This document shows, piece by piece, positions 9,661-38,988 of a DNA stretch of 64,000 nt. The position numbers were made by a program, and so were the translations under genes. The notes beneath the pieces were generated by a model, which ran no database searches, was not told where the DNA came from, and saw only the letters and a list, made by a program, of their open reading frames with translations. This DNA is from Escherichia coli (GTDB lineage: Bacteria; Pseudomonadota; Gammaproteobacteria; Enterobacterales; Enterobacteriaceae). Where the stretch lies: assembly GCF_016026235.1 (NCBI RefSeq), contig NZ_CP065613.1; one strand, written 5' to 3'. Within the stretch, counting starts at the first letter, position 1, and each line of letters begins with the position of its first letter.

Positions 9661-10484
9661 ATGAACGAACATCATCAACCTTTTGAAGAGATACGGCATT
9701 ATGGCACTGAAGGGCAAGAATTTTGGTCAGCGAGAGAATTGGCACCGTTACTGGATTATCGGGACTGGTGCAATTTTCAAAAGGTACTGACCCGCGCGAC
9801 TCAAGCGTGCGAAGCCAGCAATCAAGCTGCATCTGACCATTTCGTTGAAACCACCAAAATGGTTGTATTAGGTTCAGGGCTCAACGAGAACTTGAAGATG
9901 TTCATCTCTCCCGCTATGCCTGTTACCTGGTAGTACAAAACGGCGACCCTGCGAAACCGGTTATTGCGGCAGGACAAACTTATTTTGCTATCCAGACCCG
10001 ACGGCAGGAGCTGGCTGACGATGAAGCTTTCAGGCAACTTCGTGAAGACGAAAAGCGTCTTTTTCTGAGAAATGAATTGAAAGAACATAACAAACAATTA
10101 GTTGAGGCAGCGCAGCAAGCTAGGGTAGCGACAGCTATCGATTTCGCCATATTTCAGAATCATGGTTACCGGGGGCTGTATGGTGGATTAGATCAGAAAG
10201 CCATCCATCAGCGGAAGGGGCTGAAAAAGAGTCAGAAGATCCTGGATCATATGGGTTCAACAGAACTGGCGGCTAATCTCTTTCGAGCTACCCAAACAGA
10301 AGAAAAACTTAAGCGGGATGGCGTGAATTCAAAACAGCAAGCTAACACCACACACTTTGACGTAGGTCGCAAGGTGAGGCAAACCATTCAGGAACTTGGC
10401 GGAACCATGCCTGAGGAGTTGCCGACCCCGCAGGTCAGCATTAAGCAGTTGGAAAACAGTGTAAAAATTACAGAGAAAAAATAG
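9661..10484 (+). pseudogene. dinD: DNA damage-inducible protein DinD, disrupted by a 1-bp deletion frameshift
   Basis: ORFs 9649..9933 and 10077..10484 are the same protein in two frames. Frame 0 resumes ...[21 protein letters not shown]... right after a GGG run at 9877-9879, which is one G short of the GGGG remembered in the intact K-12 gene. Total span is 824 nt against 825 expected. Confidence 0.75.
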
Positions 10485-35745: not shown

Positions 35746-36037
35746 CTGCTTTTCCTTGATGCTATAGGGGTGCTGAGACCGATAACGCATTTTGTAAACC
35801 ATCCCTGTGAGAGCGAATATTCCGATATCTGGTTATTAATTTATGATTCTTGTTTTATGTGATCGTGGTAGCGTTAATTCCGCTCATATATCATTGTAAA
35901 ATATGGGTTTTATATGAACTATAATGCTTTCGTGATAATACGCTGCGTGTATTAGGCGGAAAAAACTGATCTGGGGGATGTAGAAACTCAAGGAAGTAGC
36001 TATAATGCGCCCCGCCTCCATGTAGCAATCGAGGCGC

Positions 36038-36132
36038 GGAAGATCGTCGTCTCCGGTGAGGCGGCTGGACTTCAAATCCAGTTGGGGCCGCCAGCGGTCC
36101 CGGGCAGGTTCGACTCCTGTGATCTTCCGCCA
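36038..36132 (+). tRNA. selC: tRNA-Sec (selenocysteine tRNA)
   Basis: GGAAGATCGTCGTCTCCGGTGAGGCGGCTGGACTTCAAATCCAGT...GATCTTCCGCCA: 95 nt, long acceptor stem and extended variable arm, TCA anticodon in the loop (CTTCAAATC), genomically encoded CCA. Confidence 0.9.
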
Positions 36133-36769
36133 AAATGCCTCTTCTGACGTTCTCCAATCCCTTGTAATACTGTCAATCCAGATATTTTCTACTGCTCAAT
36201 ATTCAATCGGCTTCAGGAATACCTGGTCAAAGGTTTTGTGATGGACGATGAGCAGCTGAAGAATCCGCCTGTCGGTTCTTCTGTCCTCGAACGCATCCGC
36301 GATATTCGCGCCAGCATGCGCCGTGTTTATTTGCAGGTGATTTGCCCCCCTGCTGACTCTCAGCCAACTGTATCGCCATTAAGGTGAAGATGTTGTTTTA
36401 CACGCTCCAGAACACCCTTTTTTATACGACTATTCTATTCCTTTAACAGCTGGCGAAAAAAACTGACCTATAAACCTCACCAATAATCAGACTGCCATCA
36501 AGATTAATTTGTTAATTTAATATATCAAATCAACTTGTTTTATTTTTACTATCAAAAATAGCTCATTGCCTTACTATAATTAATATATAAATTCGGTAAT
36601 TAATTCTTAACATGCTTTTGCTAATAATCTCAATTGCTGGCCCTATAATATTGCGCTAGCATTGCTTTCTGGTTGTATCAGCGATACTCAAAAATTCTTA
36701 ATACAATACTCATTCGACTGGTACTTATTTGTAACTCAGTTATATTTTGTCGCTCGGTGATTCAGAAGA

Positions 36770-37954
36770 ATGCAAAAAACGGCTACCACTCCATCAAAAA
36801 TACTTGATCTCACTGCCGCGGCATTTTTACTTGTCGCCTTTCTGACGGGTATTGCGGGCGCTCTTCAGACTCCTACCCTAAGTATATTCCTCGCAGATGA
36901 ACTGAAAGCCCGTCCTATAATGGTAGGTTTTTTCTTCACCGGTAGCGCTATTATGGGAATTCTGGTCAGTCAATTTCTGGCAAGGCACTCCGATAAACAA
37001 GGCGACCGTAAATTACTGATTCTGCTATGTTGCTTATTTGGAGTGCTGGCCTGCACGCTTTTTGCGTGGAATCGCAACTACTTCATTCTGCTCTCAACGG
37101 GCGTACTTCTGAGTAGTTTTGCTTCCACCGCAAACCCGCAAATGTTCGCCCTCGCCCGTGAACACGCCGATAGAACAGGCCGTGAGACGGTCATGTTCAG
37201 TACATTTTTACGTGCTCAGATCTCGCTTGCCTGGGTTATCGGGCCACCGCTCGCTTATGAACTGGCAATGGGATTTAGTTTTAAAGTGATGTATCTCACC
37301 GCTGCCATCGCATTTGTTGTTTGCGGGCTGATAGTCTGGTTGTTTTTGCCATCAATACAAAGAAATATTCCTGTCGTTACCCAACCCGTAGAAATTTTAC
37401 CCTCCATCCATAGAAAGCGAGATACGCGGCTACTTTTTGTGGTTTGTTCAATGATGTGGGCGGCGAATAATCTCTACATGATAAATATGCCGCTATTTAT
37501 TATTGATGAACTGCATCTAACCGATAAACTGGCTGGAGAAATGATTGGTATCGCTGCCGGTCTGGAAATTCCGATGATGTTAATCGCAGGCTATTACATG
37601 AAACGTATTGGCAAGCGACTATTAATGCTCATTGCTATCGTGAGTGGAATGTGTTTTTACGCCAGCGTACTCATGGCGACGACTCCGGCGGTTGAGCTGG
37701 AATTGCAAATTCTTAATGCCATCTTCCTTGGTATTCTCTGTGGTATCGGCATGCTTTATTTTCAGGACTTGATGCCTGAAAAAATAGGCTCTGCGACAAC
37801 GTTATATGCAAATACTTCACGCGTCGGCTGGATTATCGCCGGCTCTGTTGACGGAATTATGGTTGAAATCTGGAGCTACCATGCGTTGTTCTGGCTGGCG
37901 ATAGGGATGTTGGGTATTGCGATGATTTGCCTGCTGTTTATTAAAGATATTTAG
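36770..37954 (+). CDS. setC: sugar efflux transporter SetC (MFS)
   Basis: 394 aa MQKTATTPSKILDLTAAAFLLVAFLTGIAGALQTPTLSIFLADELKARP... Confidence 0.9.
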   Translation: MQKTATTPSKILDLTAAAFLLVAFLTGIAGALQTPTLSIFLADELKARPIMVGFFFTGSAIMGILVSQFLARHSDKQGDRKLLILLCCLFGVLACTLFAWNRNYFILLSTGVLLSSFASTANPQMFALAREHADRTGRETVMFSTFLRAQISLAWVIGPPLAYELAMGFSFKVMYLTAAIAFVVCGLIVWLFLPSIQRNIPVVTQPVEILPSIHRKRDTRLLFVVCSMMWAANNLYMINMPLFIIDELHLTDKLAGEMIGIAAGLEIPMMLIAGYYMKRIGKRLLMLIAIVSGMCFYASVLMATTPAVELELQILNAIFLGILCGIGMLYFQDLMPEKIGSATTLYANTSRVGWIIAGSVDGIMVEIWSYHALFWLAIGMLGIAMICLLFIKDI

Positions 37955-38064
37955 CTCACCAGTCTGGGCTAAGAAAAATCGGCGTGGCGCAAACAGAGCC
38001 ATCCTCGCCATTTTTGCTATCATGCCTGCATACATAAACGACAAAACAGTATGCAGAGGGAAAA

Positions 38065-38988
38065 ATGGGTTCCACCAGAAAGGGGATGCTGAACGTTCTG
38101 ATTGCCGCCGTGTTGTGGGGAAGTTCAGGGGTCTGCGCGCAATACATCATGGAGCAAAGCCAGATGTCGTCGCAGTTTTTGACTATGACGCGTTTGATAT
38201 TCGCCGGTTTGATTCTACTGACGCTGTCATTTGTTCATGGCGATAAAATCTTTTCTATTATTAACAATCATAAAGATGCCATTAGCCTGCTGATTTTTTC
38301 CGTGGTTGGCGCGCTAACTGTACAGCTCACTTTTTTGCTAACCATCGAAAAATCGAACGCAGCCACGGCAACGGTGCTGCAATTCCTCTCACCGACGATT
38401 ATCGTCGCCTGGTTCTCACTGGTGCGTAAATCGCGCCCGGGCATTCTGGTTTTCTGCGCTATTTTGACATCGCTGGTCGGGACTTTTTTATTGGTGACAC
38501 ACGGTAATCCGACGTCATTATCGATCTCTCCTGCCGCGTTGTTCTGGGGCATTGCCTCGGCATTTGCTGCTGCATTCTATACCACCTATCCCTCAACGCT
38601 AATTGCCCGCTATGGCACGTTACCAGTCGTCGGCTGGAGTATGCTGATTGGCGGTCTGATTCTGTTGCCTTTTTATGCCAGACAAGGAACAAACTTTGTC
38701 GTTAACGGCAGTTTGATTCTGGCGTTTTTTTATTTGGTGGTCATTGGTACGTCCCTGACATTTAGTCTGTACCTGAAAGGAGCACAATTAATTGGCGGTC
38801 CAAAAGCCAGCATTTTGAGCTGTGCAGAACCATTAAGTAGCGCGCTACTCTCTTTGCTGTTGCTGGGGATCACGTTCACATTACCGGACTGGCTGGGAAC
38901 GCTGCTGATTCTGTCATCGGTGATTTTGATTTCAATGGATTCCCGTCGCCGCGCCAGAAAAATAAATCGTCCGGCGCGGCATGAGTGA
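38065..38988 (+). CDS. yicL: EamA/DMT-family transporter YicL
   Basis: 307 aa [33 protein letters not shown]..., about 10 TM segments. Confidence 0.9.

Follow-up and report, generated by a model that had tools for sequence, protein, structure and literature searches.

Introduction

The tRNA-Sec gene selC is the tRNA target of a number of integrated islands, including the LEE, PAI-I of strain 536, SHI-2, SPI-3 and the CP4-like elements. Islets and islands linked to selC typically carry genes of the RhuM family (Pfam PF13310, Virulence_RhuM). In Salmonella, the selC-proximal end of SPI-3 is occupied by rhuM, which is often missing, deleted or fragmented among serovars (PMC5966662, PMC9251186, PMC3680342), and the gene for the 345-aa E. 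coli member of the family (WP_001280586) is likewise located directly downstream of selC. The family has also been connected with phage defence. One gene of the PDC-S05 type, which has a RhuM domain, is reported to lower the plating of T7 and T5 on E. coli B by about 1,000-fold and that of T4 by about 10-fold (bioRxiv 10.1101/2024.09.26.614923), although the gene used in that assay comes from a cold-seep organism and not from E. coli.

Here we describe the selC locus in a 64-kb stretch of Escherichia coli DNA (the window, to which coordinates refer unless another sequence is named). A first-pass annotation had described selC as unoccupied and had pointed to a GC-rich 48-codon ORF in the spacer downstream, which was offered either as a small protein or as the residue of an earlier integration event. 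We conclude that the ORF, which corresponds to the K-12 pseudogene yicT, represents the longest stretch still open in a defunct gene of the RhuM family, and that it is a decaying internal fragment that is best treated as inert (probability about 0.9).

Results

selC, its neighbours and the absence of an island

The features of the locus are listed in Table 1. ARAGORN finds the tRNA-Sec gene as the sole tRNA gene across the 64-kb window and Rfam agrees on its placement. The gene order is yicI, yicJ, selC, setC, yicL, nlpA, which is syntenic with K-12. The spacer between selC and setC is 637 bp, in agreement with the earlier estimate of about 640 bp. As had been reported, neither the ORF list nor the synteny with K-12 shows any integrase near selC. 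There is also no repeat of the selC 3′ end: the terminal 24-mer is single-copy in the window at up to three mismatches, and a permissive short-word search found no degenerate attR copy in the strain-variable segment or elsewhere in the window.

Table 1. Features of the selC-yicL region in the window
Feature	Coordinates	Strand	Evidence and remarks
selC, tRNA-Sec (UCA) gene	36038-36132	+	ARAGORN; Rfam RF01852, 83.8 bits; identical to K-12 selC
Last sequence common to the compared E. coli locus types, 15 nt after selC	36133-36147	+	Other types match only to 36147; local alignment with KMS2005 (L004) stops there
Strain-variable segment, from the conserved selC end to the conserved yicL upstream region	36148-38035		Limits of homology to other locus types
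Remnant of the ancestral rhuM leader (5′ untranslated region)	36148-36210	+	80-83% identity to L121 and L055
rhuM pseudogene fragment, residues 121-185 of the 345-aa RhuM, with internal deletions of 8 aa and 3 aa	36211-36372	+	tblastn, Pfam, PGAP; includes yicT (36241-36372)
Reported 48-codon ORF	36241-36387	+	ATG at 36241, TGA at 36385-36387; first 33-35 residues in the RhuM frame, tail is decayed sequence
AT-rich (31% GC) remainder of the spacer	36388-36769		Composition; no detectable relation to rhuM
setC, sugar efflux transporter	36770-37954	+	ORF and annotation; inside the strain-variable segment
yicU (K-12 b4797), 19-aa small protein gene	38459-38518	-	Antisense inside yicL; intact, translation identical to K-12

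Thus, of the features of an occupied island, the integrase and the attR direct repeat are absent and strain-variable neighbouring content is present. In contrast with the selC islands, the window lacks integrase, attR and island cargo alike, and only an old relic and setC are found there. The description of the site as empty and free of foreign genes therefore holds for a modern island but not for 36148-38035, which, setC included, is replaced in other Escherichia. Because this segment varies between strains, the selC site is without a modern island and yet is not pristine; the 'empty' site is itself a small strain-variable segment that opens with a gene relic.

The ORF is a fragment of a RhuM-family gene

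The 48-codon ORF is present and its translation is exactly as had been quoted; a GTG start at 36238 would lengthen it by one codon. The surrounding 5 kb holds dozens of ORFs of at least 25 aa, so the length of the ORF alone is not beyond chance and its significance lies in its homology to RhuM. At 54% GC the ORF is GC-rich in comparison with the 31% of the spacer remainder but not against the window average of 51% (setC has 46%).

Comparison of 36211-36372 with the intact RhuM of E. coli KMS2005 (L004:9196-10233) by tblastn gives 65% identity with E = 3e-21, and at the DNA level the identity to the same gene is about 92% over 36210-36339 outside a 24-nt gap. The ORF alone matches PF13310 with 24.8 bits (E = 1.5e-5), which is under the gathering cut-off. 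The extended frame 36148-36387 scores 46.3 bits and exceeds the cut-off of 33.7, although it covers only profile positions 50-98 of 252 and so falls short of a complete domain. The tail of the ORF shows marginal similarity to rhuM (z = 3.7), and a marginal collinear match extends to about 36412. For 36388-36769 as a whole the alignment score against rhuM is no better than that of shuffled sequences; this part presumably holds the setC promoter. An NCBIfam scan of the ORF gave no match.

These matches bear directly on whether the ORF might be a chance frame in a non-coding spacer, with no gene ancestry. Frames of such length are indeed common by chance, but the homology to RhuM is highly significant for both protein and DNA; a chance origin is refuted and we give it practically no credence. 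The clear homology to residues 121-185 places the fragment with the RhuM family (PF13310, SPI-3 rhuM, WP_001280586). In comparison with intact RhuM, however, it represents about 19% of the protein, has internal deletions and lacks both the N and the C terminus, and it is not a functional member of the family.

The fragment is the annotated pseudogene yicT

Spacer alignment with K-12, which had been proposed as a check, shows about 98% identity in a three-way alignment, which is near-identity, and the K-12 locus carries an annotated pseudogene. This is yicT (b4653) of MG1655, at 3836425-3836556, which corresponds to 36241-36372 of the window and has the same start codon as the ORF. Like the window ORF, yicT lies between selC and setC and starts 109 nt after selC. 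The window allele differs from yicT in having Q5 for R5 and R23 for H23. It also has AAA at 36229-36231, three codons upstream of the GTG, where K-12 has TAA, and because of this change the RhuM frame is open upstream to 36148 in the window.

When 36038-36769 was compared with 5,426 complete E. coli genomes, 5,424 of them matched, and the annotated features under the matches are 'tRNA-Sec' and 'rhuM: RhuM family protein'. In all 11 of the E. coli genomes with the same spacer that were opened, PGAP places a partial rhuM pseudogene at these coordinates. FORC_042 has a pseudogene there that carries the flags 'internal stop; incomplete; missing N-terminus and C-terminus', and the near-identical strain FDAARGOS_943 has a PGAP pseudogene at the same coordinates. 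The ORF is therefore the already annotated pseudogene yicT and not a new small protein, and in this respect it is an ordinary finding. Literature searches on yicT and b4653 returned no discussion of the pseudogene, the only matches being econometric notation and catalogue numbers.

FDAARGOS_943 (L013:889-1586) matches the selC-spacer sequence of the window at 99.9-100%. In this strain an IS1 interrupts the AT-rich part of the spacer, setC is truncated and yicJ has an internal stop; there is no IS1 in the window.

The ORF shows no sign of selection

We aligned the ORF with ten further E. coli alleles and inspected an eleventh, that of EC17CM2, separately. In six of the ten, a 1-nt deletion in the run of C at 36345-36350 causes a -1 frameshift that alters the final 13-15 residues, so that the tail PPADSQPTVSPLR becomes LLALSQLYRH and the ORF has 46 rather than 48 codons. 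In five of the ten there is a TAA in the upstream RhuM frame. Point changes in the ORF are nonsynonymous at seven positions (Q5R, L6Q, I22M, R23H, R27C, C35F and D39G) and synonymous at two. In this small sample segregating sites make up 6.1% of the ORF, against 6.3% of the leader and 6.8% of the remaining spacer. The ORF thus shows no sign of selection and its polymorphism is that of the flanking non-coding DNA. The internal deletions are common to all aligned alleles, so the decay happened once and has been followed by drift.

The suggestion of a small protein is not supported by these data, since the frame is not conserved across strains and the near-identical K-12 spacer holds a pseudogene. 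A functional protein of 46-48 aa, which might be a truncated RhuM module with a new role, would be in keeping with an ORF that is open in 11 of 11 alleles examined, with an ATG that has a weak AAGG 7 nt upstream and with the fairly good preservation of the first 33 or so residues. The AAGG, though, is simply the Lys-Gly codons of RhuM, the C-terminal third is the part that the frameshift swaps, and nonsynonymous changes outnumber synonymous ones at a polymorphism density equal to that of the flanks. The 49 of 252 Pfam positions that are retained are taken from mid-domain. There is no promoter-like site on the + strand and no structure signal, both K-12 and PGAP annotation call the sequence a pseudogene, and the papers searched make no mention of yicT in this sense. 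We consider such a function very improbable. Translation of a junk peptide from the ORF may nevertheless occur, given the ATG, the weak AAGG and a frame that stays open in all alleles examined.

An alternative is that the DNA rather than the peptide is retained, for instance for 3′-end formation of the selC transcript or for regulation of setC, and that the ORF is incidental. In favour of such a cis role, the stretch is found in about 3,600 of 5,426 genomes and has a tRNA gene on one side and the upstream region of setC on the other. A scan of 35800-36900 for promoters and terminators, however, gave nothing above shuffle expectation, and neither 36133-36240 nor 36365-36430 folds better than shuffled controls (z = 0.68 and -0.32). 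At a permissive E-value the only Rfam match in 35800-36900 is tRNA-Sec. Polymorphism is as high as in the adjacent DNA and the stretch is missing altogether from about 1,800 genomes. A cis role is therefore hard to credit, and the relic most likely does nothing.

A deletion fused the leader of rhuM to codon 121

There is a second remnant between selC and the fragment. The window sequence 36133-36210 is 80-83% identical to the sequence that follows selC in E. whittamii (L121) and in E. coli L055. In E. whittamii the leader runs about 45 nt further, up to the start codon of rhuM (MSDKRLTQSPTGEF), and E. coli CUPF09 matches the full E. whittamii leader and rhuM start at 84%. As the leader match runs on to the start of rhuM in E. 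whittamii, the window carries a deletion of about 400 bp. The leader (…TTCAATCGGCTT) is joined to codon 121 (CAGGAATACCTG…), and GCTT is present in both parental sequences at the junction. The relic is thus in its original place, adjoining selC.

The following history best explains this anatomy. An intact rhuM would once have been located directly downstream of selC in an ancestor of Escherichia. In the lineage that leads to K-12 and to the window, the deletion of about 400 bp would have fused the leader to codon 121 at the 4-nt GCTT microhomology. Further deletions would have removed 8 and 3 codons from the surviving piece, and nothing beyond about codon 185 would be left, either through loss or through replacement by the AT-rich DNA upstream of setC. 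The remaining 19% or so of the protein, with both termini gone, would now drift neutrally. The core of the fragment is 94-98% identical to the intact E. coli gene and is better preserved than the tail; this could reflect later gene conversion rather than simple decay.

Arrangements between selC and yicL in E. coli

The selC-yicL interval takes several forms among the 5,426 genomes. The junction query 35990-36300 is contiguous, which corresponds to the empty arrangement, in 2,488 genomes, and 3,609 have the entire spacer, so about 1,100 genomes with the spacer have an island inserted in selC. In this island-bearing type, of which MB98 and EC17CM2 are examples, a partial selC repeat is followed by the same relic and setC. 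About 1,800 genomes match only to 36147, 15 nt past selC. Full-length rhuM directly follows selC in 845 of 5,426 genomes, including the type strain ATCC 11775.

KMS2005 and ATCC 11775 have the same selC-yicL type. Downstream of the intact rhuM, KMS2005 (L004:9159-10650) carries a degenerate copy of the selC 3′ end (30 of 34 nt; 10345-10374), then another, degraded piece of rhuM (residues 166-245), a gene for a 122-aa hypothetical protein and yicL. Only from 38036 on, 29 nt upstream of the yicL ATG, is the window again homologous to KMS2005. CUPF09 (L134:6001-7429) has the leader, the first 14 or so codons of rhuM, fliB on the opposite strand and yicL. There is no setC between selC and yicL in KMS2005 or CUPF09, and none of the loci scanned from other species has a SetC homologue beside selC. 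The arrangement of CUPF09 is shared by E. whittamii (L121), and fliB is the gene for flagellin lysine-N-methylase.

This variation raises the question of whether the fragment was imported together with the setC-bearing DNA as one segment, in which case it would record the import of setC and not an older rhuM resident at selC. The fragment and setC do share the strain-variable segment 36148-38035, and among the loci scanned setC adjoins selC only in E. coli. On the other hand, the leader relic is contiguous with selC and is common to E. whittamii and CUPF09, in which a different rhuM stub precedes fliB and setC is lacking. Additionally, all aligned alleles of the ΨrhuM-setC type share the 24-nt internal deletion, so the decay happened once, either before or after the arrival of setC. 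A leader that is contiguous with selC and common to types without setC argues for an ancestral rhuM that was resident at selC and lost its distal part to different replacements in different lineages, and we regard joint import with setC as unlikely.

Polymorphism is unusually high in the 15 nt after selC (36133-36147), where 4 of 15 sites vary. At island ends, the selC repeats (the attR copies of L006 and L004) read GACTCCTGTGATC-GCCAA and lack the TTCC of the genuine tRNA end. The form of the attR copies and the polymorphism of 36133-36147 are consistent with repeated recombination at exactly that point.

rhuM recurs next to selC across the Enterobacterales

An exact-match scan with the 3′ 25-mer of selC, using one genome per species, gave 120 Enterobacterales loci, and the count of rhuM proximity was limited to the 96 loci with at least 1.3 kb downstream. 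A rhuM gene or fragment starts within 1 kb of selC on the same strand in 11 of these 96 species loci, which include Pseudescherichia, Enterobacter, Kosakonia, Morganella (two species), Providencia (two species), Xenorhabdus, Photorhabdus and Erwinia. The background rate past the first kilobase is five such rhuM loci in 394 kb. Two shorter loci, from Klebsiella sp. and Hafnia, also have rhuM near selC, and in E. albertii rhuM lies 1.7 kb downstream of selC.

In Pseudescherichia vulneris NBRC 102420 (L032:882-2303) the 16-mer CTGTGATCTTCCGCCA is found at the selC end and again 115 nt after rhuM. The islet is about 1.4 kb and consists of rhuM alone between perfect 16-nt repeats with no integrase inside, and it may be a minimal cassette that is mobilised in trans.

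Klebsiella sp. BIGb0407 (L023) has, in the first 250 nt past selC, a stub in which residues 108-137 or so are fused to the last few C-terminal codons. This stub formed independently of the E. coli one, so the decay of rhuM beside selC has happened more than once.

Four metagenome-assembled contigs labelled Bacillota, Sphingobacterium, Clostridiales and Wohlfahrtiimonas (L026, L064, L065 and L088) contain an exact match to the enterobacterial selC 3′ end, and L026 and L064 also carry a rhuM about 78% identical to the E. coli gene. All four are probably binning contaminants.

The parent gene

Intact E. coli RhuM contains the full PF13310 domain (393 bits) and matches the single-gene PADLOC phage-defence candidate PDC-S05 with 573 bits. 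The ORF matches the middle of the PDC-S05 profile (E = 9e-9). A plasmid-annotated Enterobacter copy of rhuM adjoins genes for Drt3, HicB and SymE. A sequence search with intact RhuM matched no solved structure.

Discussion

The data are best read as showing that the parent of the relic was a selC-associated RhuM, a candidate phage-defence gene. The window holds only a fragment (19%) of it and no defence activity is expected. Of the two origins that the first-pass annotation had offered for the ORF, the residue of an earlier integration event is the correct one, as seen from the homology to RhuM and the identity with yicT, neither of which that annotation had recognised. The arrival of the ancestral gene by site-specific integration at selC, and the order of the events that followed, are inferred. 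There is no attR repeat in the window, so the case for integration comes from other genomes.

The recurrence of rhuM beside selC allows a broader, speculative proposal. RhuM (PDC-S05) could be a minimal integrase-less defence cassette that sits at selC between selC 3′ repeats and depends for its movement on integrases that larger selC islands supply in trans. The yicT of K-12 and of the window would then represent the loss of a candidate anti-phage gene from most E. coli, with about 16% of strains keeping it. The perfect 16-nt repeats in P. vulneris, the degenerate repeat in E. coli and the presence of rhuM or its stubs beside selC in many genera fit such a cassette. We hold this proposal as a whole to be improbable.

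In summary, the yicT ORF should not be listed as a candidate small protein. The K-12-like 'empty' selC site is not ancestral bare DNA but a small variable segment, at the start of which lie the remains of a RhuM-family gene. Strains of E. coli differ in whether they have an intact rhuM at selC, and the RhuM family has one experimentally supported anti-phage member. These observations provide a context for the use of the selC-setC junction as a PCR marker of the unoccupied site and for the turnover of defence genes at tRNA hotspots.
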